Notes: generated by a model not told the origin, from the letters alone. Shown: positions 32,442 through 50,547, counted from the stretch's first letter. The stretch is DNA of 64,000 nt from Wickerhamiella versatilis (GCA_030867685.1 JAQOWU010000007.1:310001-374000); one strand, 5' to 3'. Program-made: numbers and translations.

Positions 32442-34043
32442 TTATTGGGTAGACTTCGGCTGGTTCTCTAGAGCCTTTTTCACCCAATTGTACGCGATGT
32501 CCCATCTTTCCTCAAGTGATCTTGCCAGAGAGGGCAGTGCAAATTTACGAAACCTTGGTGTATTTTTACTTATCTCTTCAAGAAGTGACCAATTTTGGGG
32601 GTCATGTGGATATAAACACATATAAAAGCAAAGGACTGTATGTGCGAAGTCAACCAGCATAGATTGAAATGCAGCATATCTTTTCGTTTTACCAGTGCGA
32701 GTCAACGCCACATCCAAAATACCCTTTGCTGCTTTTATGCACGTTCTTGCCGCTGTTTCATCCATGTAAGTGAATGCCAGTTCCCAAGATGCCACACACT
32801 TCAATACATAGTATTCCTGGATAGTAGAGCATGTCCATGAAATGAAAATGTTAGCACTGTCTTGATTTTCCTTGAGTGAGGCAGGTAACTCCTCATACCA
32901 CTTCTCCAGCTCCACATTGAGGGTGGTAGCACCCAATGCAGCATTATCTCTAGATTTTGGCGATGATCTGATATCGATAAAATATCTTTGGACTCGATCA
33001 CTAATTTGTTCAAGACCGAATAAATAAGTGAGCCCACATAAATCACTACTTTCAGGCCAAACGGGTATCGGAGTTGAGGCTTCGGAGGCTGTAAGAAACG
33101 GAAACTTACCTGTGAGTAGATGATTAGCTCTTGCTGTTGCATAAAGCAACCAAAATACTGTTTCAACGCGTCGTGCCAAACTAGATCTCATCCCAGCGTA
33201 TGTTTCTTTCTGATTGAGTTTCAAGCGGACAGCTATAGTTTTCGCTATCCAGAAAAGAAAGCTAAACTGCTGCGTTAGGCCAAATCTACCGTTGACATAC
33301 AGGAAGAACATAATCGCGTGGAAATGGACTACTTTAGGGGGTTCAAGCCCGAGTAAAGCAACAGCCCGCATCGCCTGACCAAAAGCGATGCCAAAGTTAT
33401 TTGCATTGGGTAAGATCCCCTCAGAAATAGCGAGCATTATGATTCCAGATTTAAAAATATTAGCGACAAGGCACGACGTGTCTGAGCCAATGTAATCGTG
33501 TTCCCGTACTAAAACCGACAGGCAATCACTATGTTTCTCTTGCATCACAAACTCACTCCACTTTGAAAGATATAACTCTGTTGTTTTCTCATCGATGGTC
33601 TCTTCATGTCTGTTCACGTGCAACGCAAGCTCCTGCATATAATCGCCTAATAGAGCGGTATAAGTCTCCTCCTGCTTTTGCATTCTCACGAAAAAATCAT
33701 CATCTTGAGCCCAAAACTTAAGTTTGTCGAGCTGAGACACGGAAAGAATAACTATCAACGGTTTCTCTCCCATCTTCGTCCTGTAGTCGTATTGCATGGC
33801 CGGGAAAATGTCAGCTCGTGAAGTATCTCCATCAAGAATGAAGCTCTTTGAAACCTTAAGCAACGAGTCCTCCATCCACCTAAGCTTGTCTTTCACATGG
33901 GTTTTCCCTCTAAACGGCTCCGAGCGAAACTTCTCATCTTCATGAGAATGCTTACGTTTTAGACACACATTACAGGCTTTAATGTCCTTTCCTAGTTTTG
34001 GGCCACATGCATCACAGCTGTGGGGGTCATTGGTTCCATCCAT
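32442..34043 (-). CDS. Fungal transcription-factor-like protein (degenerate N-terminal Cys cluster plus middle homology region)
   Basis: N-terminal 'SCDAC...ACNVC'; 'A..IAVRLKLNQ', 'RRVETVFWLLY', 'ELEKWYEELP' resemble the fungal TF middle homology region. Confidence 0.6.
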   Translation of the reverse strand: MDGTNDPHSCDACGPKLGKDIKACNVCLKRKHSHEDEKFRSEPFRGKTHVKDKLRWMEDSLLKVSKSFILDGDTSRADIFPAMQYDYRTKMGEKPLIVILSVSQLDKLKFWAQDDDFFVRMQKQEETYTALLGDYMQELALHVNRHEETIDEKTTELYLSKWSEFVMQEKHSDCLSVLVREHDYIGSDTSCLVANIFKSGIIMLAISEGILPNANNFGIAFGQAMRAVALLGLEPPKVVHFHAIMFFLYVNGRFGLTQQFSFLFWIAKTIAVRLKLNQKETYAGMRSSLARRVETVFWLLYATARANHLLTGKFPFLTASEASTPIPVWPESSDLCGLTYLFGLEQISDRVQRYFIDIRSSPKSRDNAALGATTLNVELEKWYEELPASLKENQDSANIFISWTCSTIQEYYVLKCVASWELAFTYMDETAARTCIKAAKGILDVALTRTGKTKRYAAFQSMLVDFAHTVLCFYMCLYPHDPQNWSLLEEISKNTPRFRKFALPSLARSLEERWDIAYNWVKKALENQPKSTQ

Positions 34044-35788: not shown

Positions 35789-37441
35789 ATGTCTATAGAT
35801 CCCGAGTACATTCCTGGTACCGAGAAAATAGTTACGGGAGACAATAAAGGGGGCATCAGTCTTCTCAAGGATGATGATGTGGTCCTGCTGCCCGCGCCTA
35901 CGCTTTCTCCGAACGACCCGTTAAACTGGTCCCGATGGCGAAAATATTGGAATGCTTTTATTCTTTTAGCCTTTCGAGGACTAGGTTCGGCCTGCAGTAA
36001 TGCAGGTTTCGCGCCCGCACCTGTGCTGGTAGAGAAGCTTGGCTTCACTTATGCAGTATTCGACAATATGGCTGCTGTGGTCTTTGCATGCATGGGGGCT
36101 TGGTTATTTCTATCAGCCCCAAGTATATTTCTTTATGGAGGACGACTTCAGTATTTATTTGGCGCTGTCTGTGGTATAATCGGAATGGCTTGGTTCGCAA
36201 ACGTGTCTCATGCCAGAGATATTTACGGGTCACAATTTTTCTTAGGGATCTCTGTATCCTGCACTGAAGCGCCTGTTATTTTGGCATTTTCTCAGGTTTT
36301 CTTTCAGCACCAAATCGATTCCTTGATCGCGATATACGTACTAGCGAGTCTTGTGGGCATGTTCTGCGGACCGTTGATTGCAGGCTATGACGTTTCCGAG
36401 CGTGGCTGGGAATGGGATGGATATGCTGGTTTGATATCTTACGCTATAATTCTCATTCTAGTGGCTTTCGGACTTGAGGAGACTTATTTCGACCGCAACT
36501 ATTTCTCCTCAAGATCCTTAATGGATATCCAACCTGGGGATGATGGCAAGAACGACAGCACAAGTACAAATTTCAACTCTGAAATGAAGCTTTCCAAGAG
36601 CACTAACCAATATAATACCCCTGACGAGGACAAAAGGGATGCTCTACTAGAGTCTGACAACATCAAGTCGTACTGGCAGCGAATTGCCCTGATAACTCCG
36701 GCTTCAAATCTGAGGGGGACTGGATTTAGGCAATATGTAGACCGGCTGTGGCTCCTTCTGCGTGTATTCACTTTCCCACCCGTCATCTTCGCAGGCATAC
36801 AATGGGCGATGCAAATGTCCTGGGTTACATATTATATGACACTTGAGTCTAATTACTGGACTGAATCCCCTTGGAATTATTCTACTTCTAGTGTGGGGAT
36901 TATGTTCGTACCTACCCTTATAGGGGCCTTGGTAGGCTTTATTTATTCATTCTGGGCAGTGAAATGGTTTGTGAAGCGCATGGCTCACCGCAATGGCGGC
37001 GTAATGGAGGCGGAGGTAAGGCTCTGGTGCCTCATTCCTGGGATTATGTCCAGTACAGTCGGACTTATAGTCCTTGGTGTAGGCACGGAGCAAATGTGGG
37101 CATGGCCGGTTCCATACGTGATGTTGGGATTCATTGGCTTTGGCTTCGGATCCTTGGGAGACATCTCGATGGCATATTGTGTTGACTGTTATCCAGATTT
37201 AGTACTTGAGACGATGGTTGCTGTCGCATTCATCTTCGATATCATCTGCGCAGTACTTTCTGTTGTTTGCAGCTATTGGCTTTCAATCGGGCCACAAAAC
37301 ACTTTCATCTCTGTTGGCATGGTAAACTTATTTTTCTGCCTGTGGGCTGTGCCTATGATTTATTTTGGGAAGCGGTGTCGAAAATGGACCCGAGAGACTT
37401 ACTTTGAGTTGGTTAAAAAGCGTGATAGTTACAATGGCTAA
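35789..37441 (+). CDS. MFS transporter, Hol1-like
   Basis: 'YIPGT', 'L.P.P...PNDPLNWS', 'LEETYFDR', 'GVMEAEVRL', 'D.YP...LE.M' typical of Hol1; ATG at 35789. Confidence 0.85.
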   Translation: MSIDPEYIPGTEKIVTGDNKGGISLLKDDDVVLLPAPTLSPNDPLNWSRWRKYWNAFILLAFRGLGSACSNAGFAPAPVLVEKLGFTYAVFDNMAAVVFACMGAWLFLSAPSIFLYGGRLQYLFGAVCGIIGMAWFANVSHARDIYGSQFFLGISVSCTEAPVILAFSQVFFQHQIDSLIAIYVLASLVGMFCGPLIAGYDVSERGWEWDGYAGLISYAIILILVAFGLEETYFDRNYFSSRSLMDIQPGDDGKNDSTSTNFNSEMKLSKSTNQYNTPDEDKRDALLESDNIKSYWQRIALITPASNLRGTGFRQYVDRLWLLLRVFTFPPVIFAGIQWAMQMSWVTYYMTLESNYWTESPWNYSTSSVGIMFVPTLIGALVGFIYSFWAVKWFVKRMAHRNGGVMEAEVRLWCLIPGIMSSTVGLIVLGVGTEQMWAWPVPYVMLGFIGFGFGSLGDISMAYCVDCYPDLVLETMVAVAFIFDIICAVLSVVCSYWLSIGPQNTFISVGMVNLFFCLWAVPMIYFGKRCRKWTRETYFELVKKRDSYNG

Positions 37442-37443
37442 GC

Positions 37444-38094
37444 TCACCCCTGTTGAGCACTAGATTGCTGGACCACCCAGCTACCAGTTAGGATAGTCAT
37501 AGGAGGATGCACCATAATATTAAAGAGTTGTTCATTAAAAAGTCCATTACTAGCCAGGATTGTGGCCGTTTCATGCCCATCCTCATAGCATCCGCGAAAG
37601 AATTTGAAATTTGAACCATCTTTTTCGACTCCTTGGATCCACGTTCCCACGCGGACAATCTTGCCCACGAGATCTTGACCCCTCTTCTTCTCCAGTACCT
37701 GGAATACTATATTCGATAATACTTTATTGCCCCTTGGCATCAATTCACTGCTTTCGGGGTCCATTCTGCGCCATATCTCAATATAGGGTTCAACTCTTTG
37801 AGTAGCTGAGTTAAACATGGAGCCTGTTTCCTTAAGATCTCCGCTTGAGAGTTGTTCGAAATGGCCACTGTCTTCACAGGATTGGCCGTTTGAATCGATC
37901 TCATGAGTGTACACTGTAGTTTGGCCGCTCATTTTCGTCTGCCCACAGAATGCCCACTCTATTTCTTGAGTGCTGTTTTTACGCAGTCTGATATCCACAT
38001 AATGTTTCCCGGGTGATGTCAACACCAAGGTATCAGTATTTTCGGAAGGTTTCTGATCAGACCATTGGATAGAAACCCGTTTTGTGAGGCTCAT
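37444..38094 (-). CDS. HRI1: Hri1-family protein
   Basis: 'RVSIQW....SENTDTLVLT', 'YVDIR', 'WAF.G', 'ETG.M.N......PY.E.W'. Confidence 0.8.
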   Translation of the reverse strand: MSLTKRVSIQWSDQKPSENTDTLVLTSPGKHYVDIRLRKNSTQEIEWAFCGQTKMSGQTTVYTHEIDSNGQSCEDSGHFEQLSSGDLKETGSMFNSATQRVEPYIEIWRRMDPESSELMPRGNKVLSNIVFQVLEKKRGQDLVGKIVRVGTWIQGVEKDGSNFKFFRGCYEDGHETATILASNGLFNEQLFNIMVHPPMTILTGSWVVQQSSAQQG

Positions 38095-38445
38095 TCAACA
38101 AGCCTCCTGTACCCGGGTGGGTTTCAGATGTTCAGTTAGTCATATGTATGGCGACCAGCTGAAGTAGCAGTTTATTCGATCCAATTCATCCACAATAAAT
38201 TAGCATATATCTGGCAGCTCGAAATGCTGCTCCTTGAAAGCTCGGCTCGGCTTGACTGGGACTACCAGAGCGCAGAATCTCTCCCTGGTACAAGCTCGAC
38301 TATGTATAACTTTTTCGCTTTTTTAAACACGCTGCTAGGCTTTTGAAGCACTCAAGACAATTCTCTTTCATTTCAGGGAAAGGAACGAATCCCATCCGAT
38401 AAAGCCCGGTGTGTCATCATTTTTCAGCGGTACGTACCGTCGCTT

Positions 38446-39819
38446 ATGCGGCCCCTTTTGGCCCGCGATTCTATCCAGGATACGCCTCCAATCGCACCAC
38501 GTGAACGTAGACTACTAGTTAAGATTGATGGACTCGTACTTTCGTATGTGTGTCTTATTTATTGGGTCAACTACCTTGACCGTACAAATTTTCAGAATGC
38601 CTACCTCACGGGCCTGAAGGAGACGCTGCAGATGAAGGGCTATGAATACAACATAGTTAATACGTGTTTTACCGTGGGCTATACCGTTGGAATGGTTCCA
38701 AACAACCTGGTGTTGTTGACAGTTTCACCAAGATATTGGTTGTCGTTTTGTGCTCTTGCTTGGGGAGTACTCGTGCTATCCATGTACAAAGCAACCGATT
38801 ACCGCCAGCTCTGTGTGATCAGATTTTTTCAAGCATTATTTGAAAGCTCTACTTTCAGTGGAACGCATTTCATTCTTGGTAACTGGTACCGGGATGACGA
38901 GCTCACCAAACGCTCAGCTATTTTTACGTCGTCTGGTCTTATTGGTTCTATATTTTCTGGCTTCATGCAGTCAAGCATCCACAGCTCGTTGGATGGTCGC
39001 AATGGTCTAGCAGGCTGGCAGTGGCTATTCATAATTGACTTTGTCATTACGGTGCCGATCGCCGTTTACGGATTCTTGTTTTTCCCTGATGTACCTGAAA
39101 GAGCGTCTTGGGTGCTCAGTGTATCAGAGAAGCAGCTCGCGCGCAAGCGGCTTCCTCCCAGAAACCCAACGCACTTAGACTGGACTGTGTTCCGTCGTGT
39201 TCTAGGGCGGTGGCACTGGTGGCTCTTTTCGCTCCTATGGGCGATTGCGGGAGAAAATGAATCTTTCGGTACCAATACTATATTTGGATTATGGCTAAAA
39301 TGGGCTGGCTATTCTTCAGCAGATCGTAACAATTACCCACTTGGAATGTACTCTGTTGGAGTATTAGCCACGCTTCTTTCCGCGCTATATGTGGACTTCT
39401 TTGGCGCTCGATATCATTGGCATGTTGCTATAGTGATATTTGTGTTTATGCTAGCCGCAACGATTATTATCTTGGCCCGGCCCCTGACTGCGTCGGCCGT
39501 GTTTGCCGCTCACTACATGACCGGGGTATCTTATGCGGGCCAAGCTGCGTTTTTTGCGTGGGCAAATGTAGTTTGCTACCGCGATCTCGAGGAGCGCACG
39601 ATTACACTTGCGTCAATGAATATGTTCAGCAGTGCGGTCAATGCATGGTGGTCTATCCTTTTTTACAAGGCCAGTGATGCACCATATTGGCGATCTGGCT
39701 GCTGGGCAATGATCGCTACCTGTATTGCTACGCTGGTCGTGGCAACCACGATACGACTACTCCAGCTTCGCGAGCATGAGTCGGTTGATGACATTAAACG
39801 CCTCGCGAGTGAGCTTTAG
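38446..39819 (+). CDS. FEN2: Pantothenate transporter (MFS, anion:cation symporter family)
   Basis: 'KID..VLSYVCL.YWVNYLDR.N..NAY', 'ESSTFSGTH.ILG.WY...EL.KRSA.FTSSG', 'RWHWWLFS', 'GENE.F'. Confidence 0.88.
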   Translation: MRPLLARDSIQDTPPIAPRERRLLVKIDGLVLSYVCLIYWVNYLDRTNFQNAYLTGLKETLQMKGYEYNIVNTCFTVGYTVGMVPNNLVLLTVSPRYWLSFCALAWGVLVLSMYKATDYRQLCVIRFFQALFESSTFSGTHFILGNWYRDDELTKRSAIFTSSGLIGSIFSGFMQSSIHSSLDGRNGLAGWQWLFIIDFVITVPIAVYGFLFFPDVPERASWVLSVSEKQLARKRLPPRNPTHLDWTVFRRVLGRWHWWLFSLLWAIAGENESFGTNTIFGLWLKWAGYSSADRNNYPLGMYSVGVLATLLSALYVDFFGARYHWHVAIVIFVFMLAATIIILARPLTASAVFAAHYMTGVSYAGQAAFFAWANVVCYRDLEERTITLASMNMFSSAVNAWWSILFYKASDAPYWRSGCWAMIATCIATLVVATTIRLLQLREHESVDDIKRLASEL

Positions 39820-40093
39820 GTCAGGAACCTAATCTGTCAGTATCATATCTATTATTTATGACCACTCTGCTATTTGTAAATAAATAATAATTTGCTCACG
39901 GTACCTTTTAACTTGGGCTTGAATCCTCTCTAGACGGGAAAGTCAGGGGCAGAAGCCGCCGGGGCAATACTCTTTACTTTTAGTGTAACGCTTTTTACGC
40001 CAATCAGGTATTCTACTTCCCGAAATGAGAGCATTGCCCAGGTATCACAAAATTGGCCTTCAGAGACATTCGATGGTCTGTTTGACTCCTGTA

Positions 40094-41260
40094 TCACGAG
40101 ATGCCTGCATTTAGGCCTTCTTTGGCTGGATTGCACCAACAATGCTTACTCTTAGGCTCCCTTGGATATAGAACAAAGTTGCAACGGGGGCAGTAGGCGC
40201 TGTGCTTGCGGTATCGACTTCCACAGGCACCACAAAGCCTTCTATCAGGCTGCCAACTGATAACCCACTGCGAGGATGATGTTCTGTGGCATGAAAGACA
40301 CACGGTTTCTTTTTCGGACGGCTCTTGATCTGGCGGATCGCATTTACGGCACTTAAAAGTCTTGTTTCCCTCCTGATCAACTGTACCTTTTTTGAAATCT
40401 GCCGAGTATGGCACAAACATGCATTTTTTACAATAGTCGTGAAAGGTTTCATAGCGCGCATTGCATGCAACGCACAGTTTTCCCACATCGTTATTCCAAC
40501 TACGCCTCCATCCTCGATGCTCGGTACCGTGACACGAGAGACATTTCATCTCCGGGGCAGCCGGCCTTGGCGTAAAATTCGGCAAATGGACTGTCACTCC
40601 TTTTTCGCATTTGCTACATTTGATAGTCTGATTACCCTGTTCGTCAGGCGGGGCTTTATTCAACTGCGACTTAAATGGAACGTAATTACAGTCGCAGTGC
40701 ACACCCGTTTTCTTCCAGCAAAGACCACAGGGATTGCACAGCTTCTGGCCCGGCACCCAGCTCTGGTGCCAGTCAGAGGTATTACTTTCCCCACATGATA
40801 GGCATATGCGCGGACTATCTTTTTCAGGAGGCGCTGCCCAAACAACAGTGTGTTCATCACCACCTGCTTGACGACTACAAGTAGGGCACGGAAAGAGTTG
40901 CTCCCCCTGCTCTCCATCTTTTACCTTATATTTCATTTTCTCCCACTCTTGGTTGTTCGGAATGAAGCCGCATAATGTGCAGTGCACGGGATGCTTCATG
41001 TGGCGATTGCCGCAGGCATTGCAAAGCACACCTTGTTTGCTATCCCAGCTTGGGCGCCATCTTATAGTCTCGGTAATGCCACAGGCGATGCAGGGTCCCG
41101 AATTTCCAGCTTTTCTACCTTCTGAGCCTGCCTGAAGTCGACCAGCATTTGAGGAGTCGGGGGTTGGACCTGCAACGCTTTGTGGGTCTTGGGCCACATC
41201 ATTATCATCTTCACTCAATACTGGGTTCGAAATTTCCTTTTTCTCATCCTTTTCCCGCAT
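40094..41260 (-). CDS. Zinc-finger repeat ORF with four Ash1/HO-type (GATA-like) modules; either a separate gene or the frameshifted continuation of the HO-like gene
   Basis: Four modules CxxC-x5/6-W..SW-x4/6-LCxxC..R.....HC..C.F.P...CxxC. First ATG at 41260 overlaps the upstream ORF by 46 nt. Confidence 0.75.
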   Translation of the reverse strand: MREKDEKKEISNPVLSEDDNDVAQDPQSVAGPTPDSSNAGRLQAGSEGRKAGNSGPCIACGITETIRWRPSWDSKQGVLCNACGNRHMKHPVHCTLCGFIPNNQEWEKMKYKVKDGEQGEQLFPCPTCSRQAGGDEHTVVWAAPPEKDSPRICLSCGESNTSDWHQSWVPGQKLCNPCGLCWKKTGVHCDCNYVPFKSQLNKAPPDEQGNQTIKCSKCEKGVTVHLPNFTPRPAAPEMKCLSCHGTEHRGWRRSWNNDVGKLCVACNARYETFHDYCKKCMFVPYSADFKKGTVDQEGNKTFKCRKCDPPDQEPSEKETVCLSCHRTSSSQWVISWQPDRRLCGACGSRYRKHSAYCPRCNFVLYPREPKSKHCWCNPAKEGLNAGIS

Positions 41261-44200
41261 TGAAGACAATTAAATAGCCCCTTTTTTCCTGCCTTTTTAA
41301 TCTGGTACTGAAACGGAACGAAATGGCAATATGGCACATCACAGTACATCTCAATATGCTTATAACGGTCTCCACACTGCGGGCATAGTTGACCTGACTC
41401 GTTATCCCAACTAGGCGTCCAGCCCAAGGATACCTGGTGGCAGGACATGCATTTCTTTGTGGTCTTGCTGGGTGAACGCTTCTGTATAGACCCAGTACAC
41501 TCATATCGTGGACAATCACTAGTTACTTCTTCAGACAGCGGGATATACCCACAATCTTGACAGAAACTTCCATGTTCCTCGTACCGGAGATGACACCAAT
41601 TACACTCTTTGCCCTTGCCAATCGGGCTTTGGTGCCAACTGATGGACCGAATCGTACTGCAAGAAATACAAGGGAATGTAGCAGAGGAGCAAGAAGGACA
41701 CGATACGATTTCCCCGTTTAGCTTCCTATATTCTTTTTTGGTCAGCTCTTTTTTACCTGTTGGCGGGATGAAACCACATCCCGTGCAGTGCGATTTGTGG
41801 ACACAAAATCGTGCAGCACATATGCCGCATAGCTTTCCCTCAGTACTGCTCCAGCTTTCCCAGTCTGCTGAACAAGACCTCATGCATGAAATGCATGCTG
41901 CCGGATTTGCACATTTGCATTGCGTCTGTCTGCAGTATGGGACAAACCGGCATTCGCTGCAATAACTCTTACGTTTCTCGTATCGTGTGCCACAAGCCTG
42001 GCATAGCTTCTGGTCAGGATCCCAGCTGGGGAGCCACTGTGCCGATTCTGTGGCTTCGCAGGAAATGCACGCGGTCTTCGGTGTGCACTTTGTGCAAGCC
42101 AATCCTTTCCTAATCTCTGCATCGTATGGCACGAAGTTGCAATTCTTGCAGTAAACTTTATGGCTTTCATACCGCTTGCTACAGGTAACGCACAGTTTAC
42201 CCTCCTCTCCATTCCAACTCCGGCACCATGCGTTGGTCACTAATTTCTGGCAAGAAATACACATGTTTCCCTCGTCAGTGACGATGATCGGATTCTGGCA
42301 CTTACTGCAGTCAAAACTCTTGCGACCTTGTTCGTCAGCCTGTGCCTTGTTTACTTCGGCTTTGAACGGAACGTTTCCACAGTCGCAGTGAATGCCGATT
42401 CTCTTCCACCGCACTCCACATGTATCACATAGCTTCTTCTCCGGGTCCCAGCTCGAAAGAAACCTCGCTACATTTTGCTCTTCGCAGCAAATGCATTTCT
42501 TCCCTGTTTCGCTCTCACTTCTCTTCTGGACTAGTGTGTAACGGCTCGGCTGTGAGCAATTAGGGCATGCAAATACCGGTTCTCCCTGGTTGCTAACTCT
42601 CTCATTCTTCTTGATAAGTTCCCATTGCTCATCGCTAGGGACAAATCCGCACTCAGTGCAATGTACACGATGCTTTCTGTAACGCTTAGAGCACGAGTAG
42701 CATAATTTAGCTTTTTCATTATCCCAACTCGGATACCAATTGTCTGAGTGAGTGCTACATCCAGCGCATTTCCTCCTTTGTAGATTCGTGAATCTCGGTA
42801 CATTTGCCCGGTCAGACCATCCTTCAGCCTTGCGCTCGGCACCCTCCGCCATCATTAGCATGCCACAGGCTAGCACATACTCGAAACTATTTCGCAGCCT
42901 CAGCTTGATCACACGGCCTTTCTTGTGTAGCGGTGTGGCTGCAAACCGAAATTGTTCGGGGCTGCGCTGCCAGTTTTCATCGGACGCCCTCGAGCGCTCA
43001 TCGGGCTTTTTACGGGGTGTCGCAACCCGCGACATGACCCTAAAAAGTGCCTCATCACCACCAAATCTAATAAAGTATGCTTTCTGAAGATCATTCGTTT
43101 CGTCTGCCCATCGGTATACCTTTGCCTCTCTGATGTGCACCCAAGCACTGATCCCGAGCGAACGCGCAATTGCCACAACTCTCATGCACAGCTCTTCGTA
43201 TACTGTTGCGATGCCGTACTCCTTTGACCACTTACTTTTGTAGCCCTTGCTTTCCGTAAGTCCAGCCAGAAACGATTCCCGCCAAGACACGGGGGCCGTT
43301 ATCAACCATTCCGGCGCAGTCTTGGTATGCACTTTTTTCTCATCTTTAATCATCTCTCCACGAATTCCAGAAGCAAGAAAAAGTCTCCACAGCCAGTTTT
43401 TTGTTGTCATGTTACGTCCATAACCTATATAACCATCGTGAATCGCAATCTGTGCGGCATAGTGCCGATGGGGATTCTCTTTCGCAGGAAGTTCTGGCTC
43501 ACCACGTTCTTTAGCAACCTTTCTTGCGGAATTTTGGTTTTTTTCCCATTCCTCTGCCAATCTAGCAGTTTTCTTCGTATGTTCCAGTAATACGGAAAGC
43601 TTTTTACGATCGTCGTCATCCTGATGGGTTAATTGTATTGTGACCCGCTTCTTATTCTGAGGTCCCCAGTATTTCTCTAAGATATCCTGAGGTAGATGGC
43701 CATAGTCAATATCGCAATCAAGGCCCAACTTCTCTGCATACACCGCGAATCTTTTCATGGACTCACTATCTTTGGAGTCGACTGCAATAAACGGAAATTG
43801 CATAAATCCATCGCCAACCCAAGTCCCAGCAAGGTACCAGAACTCATCCAAATTGCTTTCAGGGATATAATGAGATGCCATCTCTTCAAAGGTTTTTCTC
43901 TGTGGACACTTGCACTCCAGCTGGCCGGGACGTGTCTCAAATATACTGGCAGCGATTTTGTTATGCCTCCTCAAGTTGGATTTTGGATTAATTGAATCTA
44001 TATTTGCAGAGATTCGCCTTCTCTCAGCCTCATCCAGCTTATCAGCATTTCTTGGGAGCTGGTATAAAACTAGATCCCTCAGCTCAGAGGACCAGCGGAT
44101 TTCACTGTACGCCTCACCATCAGACTTTCTAGGTATTTTTGCATCAACCTTATCCCGCAATTCTGCCTTGGCCTGTTCTGCATTTGCTGCCAACTGACTC

Positions 44201-45150
44201 GTTCTCGCCTTTGCAGATCCGGCGTAGTATGTTTTCATCGTTGAGGTTTCGCGAGCCTTTGGAAAACTTCTCGTCTCACCATTTCTACCGATTAACGATT
44301 CATGAACGAGCTCGCGGTAAGTTACCTGATACCCTGGGTTCTCACCACCAAGACGGGGGCATGGATTGAGATTTCGTTGCTTCACGGTCACTTTGAATGG
44401 CTGCGATCCTCCTACCACAGCCTTTTGATGACCAAAAATATCATACGTCAGTGCTGTACTATTCCTCGAGACCTCGTAGAGCTCGCTCCATCCAGCCTGT
44501 ACACCTTCCACCTGTTGAGAGACACCATAGCGGTCAAGCACAAAGTCGCCAGCAACGATGTCTTTGGCCATTTTACTACTTCCATCGGCCATTCGTATCC
44601 ATTCGTGTTCCTCCACACCACTAGACAGATCCTCAGGCTCGAAATAATCGTGAAGCAGATTGTTCTCGTGATCCTCCTTGGATCGCTTGGCCCTAATTTC
44701 CTCCTCTTCGAAGATAGACTCAAATATTTCCTCAATTGAGTCCTCCAAAATGACCGTGTCCTCCAAATCCCCCTGCTCATCTTCTGGCTCATCAGAGTCA
44801 ATTACGAAGTCATCAAACAGAGAATACATCACGTTATCGTGTTTTCCACCAAGTTTACCGCTCTGGTTCAAAATTTCAAGATTTCCGCCGGCTCCATCAT
44901 CATTTGCCTCGCCGGAGTCGTTGTTATCGGCAAAGCTGTCGGCAAAGTTCGCGAATGCAACATCCATAGCGTTATTATAATTGCGCTCTTTATACACTAT
45001 GTTTGACCTTGAATTCTCGAGGTGTGGACGTGTGGCCCTGGCCTCCCCTTCGGGTGCGACCTGCGAGCCTGCTGAGCGCTCGGCTCTTTTAGTACCCGCC
45101 GAATTGGAGGGGCACTGCAGAGAGCTACTCGATTCGTTATCTCCCCCCAT
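41215..45150 (-). CDS. HO/WHO-family intein-derived LAGLIDADG protein with seven C-terminal zinc-finger modules
   Basis: Hint-N 'WIRMADGSSKMAKDIVAGDFVL'; LAGLIDADG-1 'WYLAGTWVGDG..PFIAVDSKD'; LAGLIDADG-2 'RESFLAGLTESKGY'; 'IATVY...VAIARSLGISA'; Hint-C 'FEYVLACG'; then HO-like fingers. ATG options at 45150 or 44967. Confidence 0.9.
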   Translation of the reverse strand: MGGDNESSSSLQCPSNSAGTKRAERSAGSQVAPEGEARATRPHLENSRSNIVYKERNYNNAMDVAFANFADSFADNNDSGEANDDGAGGNLEILNQSGKLGGKHDNVMYSLFDDFVIDSDEPEDEQGDLEDTVILEDSIEEIFESIFEEEEIRAKRSKEDHENNLLHDYFEPEDLSSGVEEHEWIRMADGSSKMAKDIVAGDFVLDRYGVSQQVEGVQAGWSELYEVSRNSTALTYDIFGHQKAVVGGSQPFKVTVKQRNLNPCPRLGGENPGYQVTYRELVHESLIGRNGETRSFPKARETSTMKTYYAGSAKARTSQLAANAEQAKAELRDKVDAKIPRKSDGEAYSEIRWSSELRDLVLYQLPRNADKLDEAERRRISANIDSINPKSNLRRHNKIAASIFETRPGQLECKCPQRKTFEEMASHYIPESNLDEFWYLAGTWVGDGFMQFPFIAVDSKDSESMKRFAVYAEKLGLDCDIDYGHLPQDILEKYWGPQNKKRVTIQLTHQDDDDRKKLSVLLEHTKKTARLAEEWEKNQNSARKVAKERGEPELPAKENPHRHYAAQIAIHDGYIGYGRNMTTKNWLWRLFLASGIRGEMIKDEKKVHTKTAPEWLITAPVSWRESFLAGLTESKGYKSKWSKEYGIATVYEELCMRVVAIARSLGISAWVHIREAKVYRWADETNDLQKAYFIRFGGDEALFRVMSRVATPRKKPDERSRASDENWQRSPEQFRFAATPLHKKGRVIKLRLRNSFEYVLACGMLMMAEGAERKAEGWSDRANVPRFTNLQRRKCAGCSTHSDNWYPSWDNEKAKLCYSCSKRYRKHRVHCTECGFVPSDEQWELIKKNERVSNQGEPVFACPNCSQPSRYTLVQKRSESETGKKCICCEEQNVARFLSSWDPEKKLCDTCGVRWKRIGIHCDCGNVPFKAEVNKAQADEQGRKSFDCSKCQNPIIVTDEGNMCISCQKLVTNAWCRSWNGEEGKLCVTCSKRYESHKVYCKNCNFVPYDAEIRKGLACTKCTPKTACISCEATESAQWLPSWDPDQKLCQACGTRYEKRKSYCSECRFVPYCRQTQCKCANPAACISCMRSCSADWESWSSTEGKLCGICAARFCVHKSHCTGCGFIPPTGKKELTKKEYRKLNGEIVSCPSCSSATFPCISCSTIRSISWHQSPIGKGKECNWCHLRYEEHGSFCQDCGYIPLSEEVTSDCPRYECTGSIQKRSPSKTTKKCMSCHQVSLGWTPSWDNESGQLCPQCGDRYKHIEMYCDVPYCHFVPFQYQIKKAGKKGLFNCLQCGKRMRKRKFRTQY

Positions 45151-45566
45151 ATAAATAGCGAAGACTACCGCCAATGTCCCAGGAACGGTGGATTAATATA
45201 GGCTGGTGGGGCCCACAGATTAGGGTTAGGTTATGGATTAGGACTGGGTCTCTTGACGCATGGTCCCTGAATAGGAGAATCACGCGATTTAATCAAGGAA
45301 TTATTGCATAGCATGGATATTCACGTCGTTTAAATATTTTTCCCCCGCTTCTTTGGAAGTGAGGACCACGTGCCCCACGCCTGCGACCCGACTGGCATCA
45401 CACTTATCCTTAAAATAGCACTACGTAATCCACATGCGTTATCAAATTACCTGAGAATTGTTGGATAATGCAAGATAACCCACAATGGTCTCTAGTTAGT
45501 CCTTAGTACCATAAAACTTGCAACCGATATACATCCTAGAGGCTTAATTATTGACTAGCCTAGACT

Positions 45567-47171
45567 TCACATAGCATACCTAAACTCCGGATTCTCGAAA
45601 TCGGTGAGATCCGCAAACTCGGGGTTCTCAATCTCGGGGGGGAGCTTCTCATCCTTCTTGTCGCGGCGCCAGTTGCGCCAAATGTTTAACATTACCAATA
45701 AAACGTTCATTCCTAATGATGCCGCCATGGTGGCGGCCATGCTCTTCTTCCCTGTAGGGTAATTAGGCTCTTCCGACCCCTTAAAAGTCTGGGGACCCAC
45801 GATATTTCCGGCGCTGTACAGAGCCAAAAACAATCCGTTCGTCACAAGTTTTTTGGTGAACCCCCCGGAATTTGACCCAATGTTAGACAAGAAGGCGATC
45901 ATCCCAACCGGGGCTGCCCAGTTCGATGCATAATTTCCGAAGAGCTGCGAGCCAGGGTTGGGCCCCCAGGCAAGCAGGCAATAACAGAGGACTGCTATGG
46001 CATTACACAACACGCAATACACTTGCCGAGTATTCTTGAACACAAACATGGACAAAATCCCGGTGAGCCAACATCCGACGAATTCGGCACCGCCTCCCAC
46101 TAGCGTCATTTTCAGCGAGTCAGGAATCTTTGTGAATCCCAACCCTTCCAAAATAATCGTATTGAAGTTTGTTGAAGCGCCGTTCGGAACATCGGAAAGG
46201 AAGATGTAAAACCCGGCTAGCCAGGTCGCGGGATCATACAATGCCTCCCACACCTGGTACATCTTGATCGTACGAGTACCATAGCCAGCGCTTCCATTGT
46301 GCTCTCGGATGACCTGCACCTGCCACGCACGCTCCTCCTCGCTAAGGAACCATGCCTGCACGGGAGTATCCGGAACGTGAAAATAGAACACAACACTAGT
46401 GACTAGCGTTATTAGGCCCATGGTGAGCATGAGCGCCCGCCAAGAATCCATACTCATAGTTGTGCTTACGCTGAGATTGTAGAACCCCAAGGCAAGTGCT
46501 GTGGCCAGAACTGTACCGAGGCCGTTGAAGCCAAACCAGAGGCAGATCCGGCTGAAATGGGACCGCCGGGGAAACCACTGGGTAGTGATGATGGTAAATG
46601 CCGGTGTGACTACTGACTCGAGAATACCAAGGATCACGCGCGTAGCCACTAATCCAGCGTAGTTCTGGCTTGCGGAGGATACTGTGAGAACAACTGCCCA
46701 TGAGAAGTAGCATATAGATATCACCTTGCTCACGGGGTACCGTTGCAAGATAAATACCATGGGCATGACGCCCACAAGGTATCCAAGGTAGAAACTGCTA
46801 CCAACCCAGGAGTACATTGCACCTTTCATATCGAGATCATCTCTGATTCCCAATACACTGGTACCATTGATGACGGTCTTATCGGCGAACTGGAGGCAGT
46901 AGCACCACCCCATGAAGGTGAATAGATATGCGTCGGCCTTGAAGGCGAGCCGCCGCCGCACATCCGGCGGGACCTCCTGCCCTTCGTGAGAATTATGGGC
47001 ATATTTCAGGGCGATATCGCCCTGTTCGTGCTCTTTCTGGTGGTGGGCGAACCGGTACGAGATCTGCGTCGCGTTGGGATGCAGCTCCGTGGTACGGCCC
47101 TCATCAAAACTGGTCCGCACGACGGTATTGTCGTCGCCTTTTTCCACACTGTCCAGTTTCTCGGAAGACAT
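45567..47171 (-). CDS. Allantoate/dipeptide permease (Dal5 family MFS)
   Basis: 'CYCLQFADK', 'YSWVGSSFYLGY', 'AWFLS.EER', 'N.GG.TKK', 'GNIVGPQTF', C-terminal 'EFADLTDFENPEFRY'. Confidence 0.92.
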   Translation of the reverse strand: MSSEKLDSVEKGDDNTVVRTSFDEGRTTELHPNATQISYRFAHHQKEHEQGDIALKYAHNSHEGQEVPPDVRRRLAFKADAYLFTFMGWCYCLQFADKTVINGTSVLGIRDDLDMKGAMYSWVGSSFYLGYLVGVMPMVFILQRYPVSKVISICYFSWAVVLTVSSASQNYAGLVATRVILGILESVVTPAFTIITTQWFPRRSHFSRICLWFGFNGLGTVLATALALGFYNLSVSTTMSMDSWRALMLTMGLITLVTSVVFYFHVPDTPVQAWFLSEEERAWQVQVIREHNGSAGYGTRTIKMYQVWEALYDPATWLAGFYIFLSDVPNGASTNFNTIILEGLGFTKIPDSLKMTLVGGGAEFVGCWLTGILSMFVFKNTRQVYCVLCNAIAVLCYCLLAWGPNPGSQLFGNYASNWAAPVGMIAFLSNIGSNSGGFTKKLVTNGLFLALYSAGNIVGPQTFKGSEEPNYPTGKKSMAATMAASLGMNVLLVMLNIWRNWRRDKKDEKLPPEIENPEFADLTDFENPEFRYAM

Positions 47172-47787
47172 AGACTGAGGAATGGTTGGCGGGGAGCCTT
47201 ATCGGGAACTAATTGGTGAAATTTATTATGTAATTGGCGTTGATAAGGGTGATTCAATTAACCGCGGCGCCCCGCGTAATAAATTGGTAACGTGTGAACT
47301 AGTTTGTATATTGGTCCCAGGAAAACCCTTTCATGTCTAATATTCGCTTGCGAATTATTTTACATCGATACTGCTACTGGAAAACTCTCACGTCGAGTTG
47401 CGACTAGCCGCCCGTACTGCAGGCCTATCCGAGAGGTTAGGGTACTTGTCTCAACGAGGCAACTAGTCGGCACAGTGGCTATTCTAGCTCCAGTTCTCTG
47501 GTCTGTTATCAGGCTTATGGTCTATGAGCTTTCCAAAACTTGGACAAAGTAAACTATGGCCATGCTATCCTGAGTAATAATCAAACCGACCCATGACCTA
47601 ATATATAGTGGCTGGATAATGGCCACACGTCGCGACCATCATTTTCTATATCTCATAAGTTAGGACCAATGCAAAATAGCCACTAGCCATAACCAGGTTC
47701 ATCAGATGGCTCGGATAATGTGCTGGTTAGATCATTTGCGATGTATGCCTTCGCGACTACCACTTGCAGGGCCGATGGTCTAGGTGC

Positions 47788-48747
47788 TCACGGCCTAGGC
47801 AGGAACTGCTCATACCTCAAAACAACATCCTTCCAGTGCTCTGGCTTGCGCCCCGTGAGCTTCTCAACATCGTTAGTCGGGTGAATCATGAATTGCTTCG
47901 CGAGCATCTCCCCACAGCATGTCAAGTCATTCATGCATAGCTTCATGGGCAGCTTCGAGAAGTCGCCGGTCGCGGCATCCCATGGTAATCCCTTGGAGTC
48001 CCACCATCTGATCAGCCACTCGTCAGGGACGTCGACAAATTCGCCCCGGTACCCGGTGTGGTCACAGATGAACTCGAATACCTCCTGATCGGTAACCGCC
48101 TCGGGGCCCGTTAGATGGTAGACCGTGTTCGGCTTCCCCTTGCCAAGCATCAATGCCCCAAACACCCTGCCACAGTCGTCCCGGGACACATATGCACCGG
48201 GCTGGCCGTGCGTGATATTGAACCACTTGTTGCCGCAGAATTTCCAGCTCGGGGCAAATAGGGTGGGCAGGTTATCGGCATACAGGTAATCCCGCTGGAA
48301 GTTCCATTGCAGGCCGGAATTACGGACGATTTTTTCGATGGATGCATGGTCGCGGGGTAAAAACGGGACCTCGTACTCCGACTTGACCACCTCGCCAAGA
48401 CCTGCGCCAATGAACGACGTGTAGCACACCCGCTTGACCCCTGCCGCCTTGGCGGCCTCAACAATGTTTGCAGCCTGCTGGGCGCGGCTTCCAAATGCCC
48501 AGGTTGAAATGAATCCCACCGCCTTGGCCCCGGCGAACACCTTTTTCATTCCCTCGATGTCCCCGTAGTCCACCCGCTCGAGGTTGATTCCGCTAGAGTT
48601 CCACAATTGTTGCGTTGCAGCGTCAATTGACTCTGGCTTATAGCTTCCAAACACAATCTCCTGGTGGGACTGCCGATTCTCCAGCATCCATTGCGCAGCA
48701 ACTCCGCCCAGATGGCCGTCAACCCCAGTGAGAACTAATTTTGTCAT
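47788..48747 (-). CDS. NmrA-like/atypical SDR NAD(P)H-binding oxidoreductase
   Basis: 'VLTGVDGHLG', 'AAKAAGVKR..YTS', 'DH...E', 'VSRDD', 'LTGPE', 'VEKLTGR.P'. Confidence 0.85.
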   Translation of the reverse strand: MTKLVLTGVDGHLGGVAAQWMLENRQSHQEIVFGSYKPESIDAATQQLWNSSGINLERVDYGDIEGMKKVFAGAKAVGFISTWAFGSRAQQAANIVEAAKAAGVKRVCYTSFIGAGLGEVVKSEYEVPFLPRDHASIEKIVRNSGLQWNFQRDYLYADNLPTLFAPSWKFCGNKWFNITHGQPGAYVSRDDCGRVFGALMLGKGKPNTVYHLTGPEAVTDQEVFEFICDHTGYRGEFVDVPDEWLIRWWDSKGLPWDAATGDFSKLPMKLCMNDLTCCGEMLAKQFMIHPTNDVEKLTGRKPEHWKDVVLRYEQFLPRP

Positions 48748-48853
48748 GTGGTGGGATTATTATGGGCTAACATTAATTTTATATTTTAAAATTAGGTCGT
48801 GTTTCTCGTACCCCACACCGCTGGCCGAGGAAGCCTGCCGAGGGAGAATTGCG

Positions 48854-49327
48854 ATGTCAGCGCCTGCGCCAGGGTGGTCTGCGAAGAAGTACAGAGAGCT
48901 GTCCCTAGACGAGCTGTATGCCCTTCTAAAACTACGTTCGGACGTGTTTGTGGTTGAGCAGGCCTGTGCGTACCCTGATATAGATGGGGCAGATCGTACA
49001 GAGGAAGTGGTTCACCTGATGGACTACGACGATAGCACGGCCACTATGCGGCGCTACGCCCGCCTCGATGTGGACGGGAATGATGGAGCCGTCCACATAG
49101 GCCGGGTGGTGGTGTCACCAGCAGTGAGAGGTAAGGGCCAGGGACGCGAACTTGTGGCCCGCGCGGTGCAGGAGGCGGAGAGCAGGTGGCCGGGCCGCGA
49201 GCTGAGGCTAGCCGCCCAGACATATGCGCAGAAGCTCTACTCTGGTCAGGGATTTGTTGTGTCAGGCCCTGTATTCTTGGAGGATGGCATCGAGCATGTC
49301 CACATGGCCCGCGCGGCCTCGAAATAG
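48854..49327 (+). CDS. ElaA-family GNAT acetyltransferase
   Basis: 'ELYALLKLRSDVFVVEQACAYPDIDG', 'IGRVVVS...RGKG.G', 'L.AQ', 'FLEDGIEH..M' match bacterial ElaA; ATG at 48854. Confidence 0.92.
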   Translation: MSAPAPGWSAKKYRELSLDELYALLKLRSDVFVVEQACAYPDIDGADRTEEVVHLMDYDDSTATMRRYARLDVDGNDGAVHIGRVVVSPAVRGKGQGRELVARAVQEAESRWPGRELRLAAQTYAQKLYSGQGFVVSGPVFLEDGIEHVHMARAASK

Positions 49328-49332
49328 AAGGT

Positions 49333-50547
49333 CTATTTCTGGCATTGGTGAGCAAACTTACGATGGCTGAATGGCTGGGGGAACATCTCATATTTAATTA
49401 GCCGGCGAAGATCCCATTCAATTGTGCTCTCCGTTTTGTACGACCAGAAAATCCAGCCGTGTCCCGTCTGCTCGAACTTGTCGAGCTGAGCCTCCACGTA
49501 CCTGCGCATGTCGTCCCGTCGTTGGTCAGACCACTCGGATATATCGTCGACTCCTCGACAATACTCCAGCTGGTTGAAAAGCTCGCGGAGAACAGGCGTG
49601 CTGTTGATGGTGTCGCACTGGCTTCGACTCGCCGACCACTCGCCCACGAAGTGCGGCCGCGTATCGTTGGTAAACACCATTTGATCGGAGCACACGCCCT
49701 CAACTGCCTGGGAAATCGGCCCTGGCTCACTGTTCAGAGACGTCTGGTAGTAATGGTAATCGATAGCCACCCGGCTGTCATTCGCAAACCAGGAGTACTT
49801 AGGAGTCAGAAAGAAGTCATTGATGACGGGCGTAATCGATTCTGGCAAGTTCGACACAAGGTATGCGTAGAATTCATAGAGCCGCTTGTCATATTCAGCC
49901 TCGGTTATTCGGTACGCCTGGGAGAACGGCAGGTTTGTCGCGAAGTAGTCGGGGCTTATGGGCTCATTTAACAGCTCCACGGCTGCCACAACGCCATTCC
50001 ACTCTGGCCCTTCGTACCTCTCCGCGATTTGCAGCAAAATCTCCGCAGTCTCGTCCACCGTGGTGCTATTCTCTATCCACGGGGTGCCCGGAATGTCCAA
50101 ATCGTTCCAATTGGCAACCCCTCCGGGTGGGATATGTAAGTCTATCATGGCGTGGATGTTGTATTTCCCGGCCCACTTCAGGGCGCGGTCAAGATACGGC
50201 AGCTGGCCCTGGACAAATGGGTCCCCGGGTTTCTCGAGGAATGCCCAGTACCCCACGGGTATCCGCACAACATTAATGCCCCAGTCATGCATCTTCTTGA
50301 AGTCGTCCTCCTGAATCCAGGTATCCCAATGGTGCTCAAGCAGTTCTTGCGACCTGCTCTTCCCCAAACTCTTGGTGAGGGAGTACTCCGTCTGTCCACT
50401 GGTATTGGCAAATAACGAGGGAACCATATAGCGTTCGAGAACGAACCAGGAGCCGAGGTTCGCACCACGTATCTCGGAGAGACTGAAATTGAACGCAATT
50501 GTTTTGGCTAGTAAGGCTGCCATTGCCATGGCCGAAGCGGATTTCAT
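49333..50547 (-). CDS. Secreted GH5 exo-1,3-beta-glucanase (Exg1-like)
   Basis: 'RGANLGSWFVLE', 'VRIPVGYW', 'IDLH', acid/base 'LNEP', 'DYHYY', nucleophile 'VGEWS', 'GWIFWSYKTE'. Confidence 0.92.
   Translation of the reverse strand: MKSASAMAMAALLAKTIAFNFSLSEIRGANLGSWFVLERYMVPSLFANTSGQTEYSLTKSLGKSRSQELLEHHWDTWIQEDDFKKMHDWGINVVRIPVGYWAFLEKPGDPFVQGQLPYLDRALKWAGKYNIHAMIDLHIPPGGVANWNDLDIPGTPWIENSTTVDETAEILLQIAERYEGPEWNGVVAAVELLNEPISPDYFATNLPFSQAYRITEAEYDKRLYEFYAYLVSNLPESITPVINDFFLTPKYSWFANDSRVAIDYHYYQTSLNSEPGPISQAVEGVCSDQMVFTNDTRPHFVGEWSASRSQCDTINSTPVLRELFNQLEYCRGVDDISEWSDQRRDDMRRYVEAQLDKFEQTGHGWIFWSYKTESTIEWDLRRLIKYEMFPQPFSHRKFAHQCQK

Follow-up and report, generated by a model that had tools for sequence, protein, structure and literature searches.

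A Wickerhamiella versatilis intein-zinc-finger gene with eleven HO-type finger modules appears to represent a separate branch of the HO/WHO endonucleases

The minus strand of a 64,000-nucleotide stretch of Wickerhamiella versatilis DNA (GCA_030867685.1 JAQOWU010000007.1:310001-374000; the whole stretch is referred to as the window) carries, at positions 40094-45150, a gene whose product shows, in this order, an acidic N-terminus, Hint-N, a pair of LAGLIDADG motifs, Hint-C, and a series of Cys-rich modules. We read the family to which this gene belongs as a third, deep-branching branch of the superfamily of intein-zinc-finger proteins that contains HO and WHO. New in the family are an extended N-terminus and finger arrays in which as many as 11 modules of HO type follow one another. 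By analogy with WHO genes, we consider with moderate confidence that the family follows the selfish life style of a nuclear homing endonuclease.

An original prediction had proposed an HO/WHO-like architecture for this gene, and the proposal was borne out: the protein looks like a free-standing, nonsplicing VDE-like intein followed by an HO-type zinc finger, and every domain and motif it named was recovered in the predicted order and at the predicted minus-strand position. Its count of seven Cys-rich modules has to be raised to 11, with seven at 41245-42774 and four at 40103-41098. In addition to these four further modules, it had missed a frameshift, the loss of a catalytic Asp, and extra genomic copies. 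The features of the gene are listed below.

41215-45150, minus strand: open reading frame (ORF) A, 1311 amino acids (aa)
40094-41260, minus strand: ORF B, 388 aa
44647-45150, minus strand: N-terminal acidic extension, residues 1-168 (family alignment consensus)
43837-44646, minus strand: Hint-N and an inserted DNA-recognition-like region, residues 169-438
44581-44619, minus strand: Hint-N motif, 'GVEEHEWIRMADG'
43807-43836, minus strand: LAGLIDADG-1, 'YLAGTWVGDG', with the catalytic Asp kept and aligned to PI-SceI D218
43243-43281, minus strand: LAGLIDADG-2, 'RESFLAGLTESKG', with a Lys codon at 43246-43248
42769-42990, minus strand: Hint-C, residues 721-794, with 'LMMAE' versus 'LVHNC' of VMA1 inteins
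41245-42774, minus strand: zinc-finger modules 1-7, with 8 Cys each and a GATA-like first half
41238-41242, minus strand: A5 homopolymer and frame break, in the linker after module 7
41099-41237, minus strand: acidic low-complexity linker between the finger arrays, in the ORF B frame
40103-41098, minus strand: zinc-finger modules 8-11, of which modules 8-10 are similar to modules 1-3

In the window, the gene is divided between two minus-strand ORFs that lie in different frames and overlap by a few codons. A protein from another public assembly (P0003) is encoded by a single ORF of 1685 aa. It joins residues 1-1304 of ORF A, in which E301K is the only substitution, to the C-terminal 382 residues of ORF B, and is the product expected from one more A in the A5 run at 41238-41242. 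We compared public contigs with the window stretch 37000-48000. Runs X12 and X13 come from an isolate of one named organism and gave identical figures, and they were therefore treated as one data set. The extra base in the A-run was present at full depth in X12/X13 and also in X7, a food metagenome, and the X12 contigs otherwise matched the window exactly across the flanks. X20, a sister organism, had no extra base at this position, and its contig contained one unlisted gap. Because the X12 flanks are otherwise identical and the extra base occurs in X12/X13, X7, and P0003, we regard an assembly error or a private mutation as the most likely source of the frameshift, and the gene is most likely a single ORF of 1685 codons. 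The homopolymer is one base short relative to otherwise identical isolate data, and further homopolymer errors may exist in the window assembly.

Both sequence and predicted structure relate the core of the protein to PI-SceI/VDE, the VMA1 intein, which was the best match in both domains. Profile searches agreed with the original prediction in part: Pfam Hom_end matched residues 613-717 of ORF A above its cut-off (1.1e-18) and Pfam GATA matched ORF B (5.7e-18), while Hom_end_hint reached 21.6 bits on ORF A, under the cut-off of 32.1. Core residues 150-830 matched PI-SceI chains by sequence (4e-15), and a profile of the family matched Hint-N of VMA1 inteins. An AlphaFold2 model of the core, built from a 21-row alignment, had a mean pLDDT of 82.2 and a pTM of 0.81. 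When this model was searched against the PDB with Foldseek, 17 entries matched at an E value of 0.001 or less and the top ten were PI-SceI/VDE chains (best E value, 1.8e-29; target-normalised TM score, 0.84); PI-SceI domain I alone (1gpp) was matched as well. The predicted structure thus confirms the Hint fold of the core despite the Pfam match being under its cut-off.

Unlike PI-SceI, the protein is encoded outside VMA1, has lost the splicing residues, and has gained zinc fingers and an N-terminal extension. In an alignment with VMA1 inteins, the Cys1 column holds Gly in all family rows (Gly178 in the window protein). In the columns of 'HNC', the window protein has 'MAE', and its relatives have 'LDV', 'LDA', or 'PDA'. 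The HO-type row likewise lacks the splicing residues. Given the Gly at Cys1 and the missing His-Asn and +1 Cys, protein splicing is not to be expected from the sequence.

PI-SceI D218 and D326 are metal-binding catalytic residues. In the window protein, the D218 equivalent is Asp and the K301 equivalent, in 'TKTAPEWL' upstream of LAGLIDADG-2, is Lys, as in PI-SceI, while the D326 equivalent in LAGLIDADG-2 is replaced by Lys. P0003 has the same Lys. Of the acidic residues that end the two LAGLIDADG motifs, the window copy therefore has Asp in the first and Lys in the second, and P0004, its close relative, keeps both. Asp also occupies the D326 position in P0005, P0007, P0009, and P0183. Because a Lys stands at the second metal-binding Asp, the window copy probably binds DNA without making double-strand breaks and would at most introduce nicks.

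The finger array of 11 modules is divided by the frameshift into seven modules before it and four after it. Each module begins with a CxxC-x16-18-CxxC finger of GATA type, continues with a second pair of Cys knuckles that includes a conserved 'CxxCxFVP', and contains eight Cys whose columns are invariant over all 11 modules (88/88 ligand positions; 44 Cys pairs). The first half, CxxC-x17-CxxC, is what Pfam GATA recognises (62.2 bits over 5 stretches of the modules; on ORF A, 23.3 bits, under the cut-off), and the second conserved knuckle pair ('hCxxCxFVP ... CxxC') sets the module apart from ordinary GATA fingers. Structure-based searches added little to this picture. A single-module AlphaFold2 model (module 1; pLDDT, 73.2) had no PDB match at an E value of 0.001 or less by Foldseek (best, 0.21), VIA-align of the model gave a Z score of only 2.1, and an ESM Atlas search with modules 1 and 2 returned only weak GATA-type leads.

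A counterpart of the module was found in HO. We built a hidden Markov model (HMM) from 37 modules of eight family proteins and used it to search a set of some 190 proteins. In the Tetrapisispora/Henningerozyma blattae HO-type protein, the C-terminal finger domain was matched over positions 1-72 of the 80-position model (39.4 bits; independent E value, 4.8e-12), and three unnamed WHO-like proteins (P0030, P0033, and P0179) were matched at 30.3 bits. This T. blattae protein, TBLA_0B00330 (583 aa), is labelled only as a hypothetical protein at its source, and we take it to be the HO of the species. Nothing else in the set matched; the set is free of ordinary GATA factors, so that closeness to HO versus Ash1 is not readable from it. 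Pfam GATA did not report the HO-type protein at an E value of 0.01 or less. In a BLASTP comparison, the HO-type protein aligned colinearly with P0005 from LAGLIDADG-1 through the first finger (E value, 5e-19).

The array appears to be old, because its modules diverge by 24-40% at the DNA level. P0010, from another lineage and 36% identical, has the same layout of two arrays with a linker, and residues 840-1125 of P0004 align to 40124-41092 with 41% identity. The N-terminal extension also contains segments that are conserved throughout the family, namely, 'RSxGSQVxPEGE' and, just ahead of Hint, 'E.N..H.YFEP'. The HO-type protein P0023 starts at Hint itself, without such an extension.

When the core was compared exhaustively with 1.84 billion representative proteins, phmmer returned 36 matches at an E value of 0.001 or less, 9 of them at 1e-30 or less. 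Twelve of the 36 were assigned to the family (P0004-P0013, P0016, and the finger-only piece P0031). A gap separated them from what followed, which consisted of VMA1 inteins at about 1e-13, the HO-type protein at 3.6e-5, and other inteins. Database look-up gave a name or accession for none of the 13 family proteins; among the 30 proteins looked up, only the T. blattae protein, a Mortierella VMA1, and a Coemansia VMA1 were named. A metagenome scan with the family alignment produced 158 pattern matches, none of which was confirmed. The best match of the family profile outside the family was P0017 (972 aa, ENA record; 106.7 bits), a VDE-like intein with an intact 'VVHNC' in a Cys-rich protein other than VMA1, which groups with the Mortierella VMA1 intein.

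We then placed the family in a maximum-likelihood tree of 26 intein cores (485 columns), in which HO and WHO are represented by three rows, one HO-type and two unnamed WHO-like, without the named WHO1-13. The seven full-length family rows formed a clade with support of 100/100 on a stem of 1.93, and within it the window protein/P0003, P0004, P0006, and P0008 separated from P0005, P0007, and P0009. The HO-type row and the two WHO-like rows grouped together (90/91), and this group was joined by five VMA1 inteins (85/78). The family fell outside HO/WHO-like proteins plus VMA1 inteins in the free tree, with only 44/6 support on the deciding branch. Forcing the family into one clade with the three HO/WHO-like rows cost 1.2 log-likelihood units (approximately unbiased [AU] test, p = 0.355). 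As judged from these sequences, the family is not nested in the sampled HO/WHO-like or VMA1-intein groups and appears to be a separate family, as the original prediction had suggested. Its further suggestion of an independent domestication was not substantiated: because the HO finger is matched end to end, the alignment with the HO-type protein is colinear, and the AU test gave p = 0.355, a single fusion event common to the family, HO, and WHO seems at least as likely as an independent origin.

Compared with HO, the gene is similarly free-standing, with a VDE-like Hint, two LAGLIDADG motifs, no Cys1, and no terminal His-Asn, and the family module matches the four Cys pairs of the HO C-terminal finger domain end to end. 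HO has one finger domain and starts at Hint, whereas in the window protein 11 modules form two arrays, some 170 residues precede Hint as an N-terminal extension, and the core is longer by about 170 residues. Sequence similarity to HO is low (3.6e-5), the family forms a clade of its own, HO keeps the second catalytic Asp that the window copy lacks, and no counterpart of the link of HO to MAT was seen. HO, the mating-type switching endonuclease of Saccharomycetaceae, cleaves MAT and is about 586 aa long. The profile of HO as a single-copy gene of that length thus differs from that of the window gene, with 1685 aa, 11 modules, diverged copies, and a separate clade.

The resemblance to WHO genes concerns their behaviour as well as their structure. 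In Coughlan et al. 2020 (PMC7282813) and the preprint of Osborne et al. 2026 (10.64898/2026.08.13.744650), WHO genes are described as lying downstream of FBA1 together with FBA1 3' fragments, as having 3-5 CxxC motifs, and as being very limited in distribution, and an organisation of LAGLIDADG plus zinc finger is given as known only in HO and WHO. PMC7282813 names the atypical GATA finger of Ash1 type as the nearest to the HO and WHO fingers. Like the WHO genes of Torulaspora and Lachancea, the family combines an intein-zinc-finger fusion without exteins with a multicopy, diverse membership of intact and degenerate forms; the window gene lies downstream of another gene in the same orientation, and the WHO-like proteins P0030, P0033, and P0179 share its finger module. 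Unlike WHO genes, it has an MFS (major facilitator superfamily) permease as the upstream gene, no fragment duplication in the window, and 44 Cys pairs, and in the tree the family stands apart from the two WHO-like rows. A literature search found no report of such genes beyond HO and WHO; the supplements of PMC7282813, which cover WHO families including those not linked to FBA1, lay outside this search and might bear on novelty.

Evidence for further copies came from the X12/X13 isolate, in which 25 of the 45 aligned contigs were only 85-95% alike to the window. Stretch 37000-40302 was covered by one contig with zero differences. From bin 40303 on, the summed depth rose, mainly across the element and its upstream region (45074-45440) and again at 46542-46908, and loose contig ends were found at 40654, 40934, and 45483-45748. 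Summed depth is not usable as a copy number, and we relied on the presence of diverged contigs only. These divergent extra contigs indicate that the isolate carries putative paralogous copies of the gene. P0004, which is 78% identical to the window gene (tblastn) and keeps both catalytic Asp, is likely to be a paralogue in the same species. Its N-terminal read-through matches 45170-45283, so that the similarity takes in about 110 bases of sequence upstream of the start codon, with 79% identity, and the protein ends past module 5; it was found on 5 contigs, compared with 4 for P0003. One diverged contig differed at 146/1012 bases where P0003 and P0004 have 77% protein identity, although this contig was not shown to encode P0004.

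Other members show signs of decay. Among eight readable lineages, both catalytic Asp were present in five (P0004, P0005, P0007, P0009, and P0183), one in the window lineage, and none in two (P0006 and P0008). P0008 and P0183 end past Hint-C, without fingers, and P0011, P0012, and P0016 comprise N-terminal sequence only. The JGI/Logan records of P0046 (1080 aa, with fingers) and P0183 (569 aa, without fingers) give the same length, 61,287 bases, for the longest contig, and the two proteins may share one contig, as clustered WHO genes do. In X12/X13 and X7, several short contigs can be aligned to the spacer and to the upstream permease gene at its 3' end, beyond which they diverge (loose ends at 45483, 45576, 45625, and 45748; a joint from 45443 to 45693). 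The short contigs at 45440-45750 and 46542-46908 may come from paralogous permease genes or may accompany other copies of the element.

We therefore propose the following scheme for the selfish, WHO-like reading. A PI-SceI/VDE-type intein core, made up of Hint and the double LAGLIDADG domain, is fused to eleven tandem copies of an HO-type finger and an acidic N-terminal extension. The fingers and the insert of the Hint domain may bind a long DNA site, which the LAGLIDADG domain would cut, and repair of the break would copy the gene. The copies would then multiply, diverge, and decay, and the window copy would have retained DNA binding and lost double-strand cleavage.

Several observations count against this scheme. 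No cleavage, target site, homing event, or empty site was seen, and there is just one copy within the 64-kb window. No duplicated fragment of a neighbouring gene occurs in the window, so that the hallmark layout of WHO genes is not found there. The extra copies are known from short assembled contigs and not from a finished genome, and the locus seems to be present in the sister strain or species X20 with 2-4% divergence, in agreement with stable inheritance. An intact ORF of this length, the invariant Cys, and a two-array layout in common with a 36%-identical relative would fit a selected host function equally well. As for the placement of the family, only three HO/WHO-like rows were available, the family branch is long, and its position in the tree has support of 44/6; the proposed loss of double-strand cleavage draws on the known role of PI-SceI D326.

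The best-surviving alternative, which we consider rather unlikely, is that the gene was domesticated by its host, as HO was, with the copies that retain both Asp making a programmed break or rearrangement and the 11-module array giving the window copy a DNA-binding or regulatory role. Consistent with this, the 1685-codon ORF is free of stops in other data, the eight Cys are invariant in 11/11 modules, the two-array layout is common to P0010 at 36% identity, the N-terminal motifs are conserved family-wide, X20 seems to hold the same locus at 2-4% divergence, and the K301 equivalent and the first Asp are kept, with one Asp changed only. However, diverged extra copies occur in data from the same isolate, both catalytic Asp are lost in 2/8 lineages, and truncated forms exist. 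Furthermore, about 12 clusters in 1.84 billion representatives suggest a patchy distribution, the gene lies among accessory permease and glycosidase genes, and the window scans found no MAT-type gene nearby.

A more speculative and, in our estimation, less probable possibility is that the family preserves the ancestral form of HO and WHO. It would then descend from a VDE-like intein that landed in a multi-zinc-finger gene close to its 5' end; the conserved N-terminal 170 residues and the finger array would be the former exteins, and the family would predate or lie outside the Saccharomycetaceae. Members with both Asp would form an active nuclear homing system whose host gene is new and may be the adjoining upstream permease gene, and copies with a dead nuclease, such as the window copy, might bind and shield the target site. 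The landing of an intein in a zinc-finger gene is a step that Coughlan et al. (PMC7282813) propose without having an example of it.

It is improbable that the gene is a dead relic, that is, the drifting pseudogene of a once active element. The frameshift in the window A-run, the Lys in place of the second catalytic Asp, and the relatives that are truncated or lack both Asp would agree with decay, but the frameshift is absent from X12/X13, X7, and P0003, no stop interrupts the 1685 codons, all 88/88 Cys ligand positions are kept, and the sequence past the frameshift is as well preserved as that before it.

We give a similarly low chance to an independent fusion, in which an intein-like gene and a GATA-type finger gene were joined separately and the likeness to HO is convergent. 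The tree of the intein part, which sets the family outside HO/WHO-like proteins and VMA1 inteins (85/78), would agree with this, as would an N-terminal extension and finger arrays that have no counterpart in HO. Yet the module matches the full 72-residue, two-knuckle finger of HO, beyond the GATA part, and Pfam GATA does not report the HO finger at an E value of 0.01 or less; moreover, the junction between intein and finger is colinear, and one clade with HO and WHO-like proteins is not rejected (AU p = 0.355; deciding branch, 44/6). Finally, it is highly improbable that the core is a true splicing intein whose exteins are the N-terminal 170 residues and the finger array of a zinc-finger host protein: N- and C-terminal regions do flank the core and one subclade has a Cys two residues ahead of the Cys1 column, but that column is Gly in all family rows and the positions of His-Asn and the +1 Cys/Ser/Thr read 'MAE', 'LDV', 'LDA', or 'PDA'.

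A third family would widen the known range of this class of selfish or domesticated nuclear endonucleases, supply an outgroup for rooting the HO/WHO tree and for testing the origin of HO, and connect the odd HO finger with GATA fingers, since its modules are seen by Pfam GATA and the HO finger is not reported. A natural LAGLIDADG nuclease coupled to up to 11 predicted DNA-binding modules would be of interest for target recognition and engineering. Should copies with an intact active site prove to cut a specific gene, yeasts of food fermentations would have a homing system that is new.

On either side of the gene is an MFS permease gene, and these two share only 25% identity; the surrounding genes are of accessory metabolism, permease and glycosidase genes among them. 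The flanking features are as follows.

45151-45483, minus strand: upstream region common to the diverged copy or copies
45567-47171, minus strand: MFS permease gene, directly upstream, in the same orientation
38446-39819, plus strand: MFS permease gene, downstream, convergent

The upstream permease gene occupies the position that FBA1 holds relative to WHO genes. The original prediction had called the neighbours FEN2 and a Dal5-family permease; both are MFS permease genes, for which FEN2 and DAL5 are putative names. It had also placed the gene away from FBA1, VMA1, and MAT, and this agrees with our searches of the window: VMA1 queries matched the intein part of this gene only, with no match to the VMA1 extein parts; ORF scans revealed no MAT-type gene; and a Pfam scan of the 34 other ORFs revealed no aldolase, no FBA1-directed search having been made. 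The adjacent target-gene fragments that it had envisaged were not found in the window by tblastn of the flank proteins or by a repeat search, and the flanking genes have no duplicated fragment there.

The host genes are uninterrupted, intron-poor ORFs, and domains with PIR repeats and of HRI1 type point to a budding yeast. A search with HRI1 returned only two matches, both unnamed, and the ESM Atlas led no further than Ascomycota. CTG is common, and 3/4 CTG codons of a conserved gene fall on invariant Leu columns; the host appears to read CTG as Leu and to use the standard genetic code. Public runs that carry window DNA number 24; most are metagenomes from food and food fermentation, one named organism is also among the sources, and no run is labelled as RNA, with X20 as a possible exception. 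No tRNA and no Rfam family was found in the window.

Several minor observations concern other genes of the window. The ORF at 32442-34043 (minus strand; 533 aa) had no Pfam match at an E value of 0.001 or less. The gene at 16730-18241 (plus strand) encodes a 503-aa flavin adenine dinucleotide (FAD) flavoprotein of fumarate-reductase-like type, whose best named relatives are from Eurotiomycetes (Monascus purpureus, 70%; many Aspergillus, about 57-60%). No named yeast protein was among the 120 matches listed, and the gene may have been transferred or specially retained. At 45567-50547, an MFS permease gene, an NmrA-like gene, and a GH5 glucanase gene have a third-position GC content of 0.64-0.70, compared with 0.39-0.57 in the other genes measured, and the element adjoins the edge of this GC-richer block. 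The HRI1 gene (37444-38094, minus strand) and the EXG1-like GH5 glucanase gene (49333-50547, minus strand) share one orientation and are separated by 11 kb, in which the element and four other genes lie. In S. cerevisiae, EXG1 and HRI1 adjoin each other; on this comparison, the stretch between the two genes may be an insertion.

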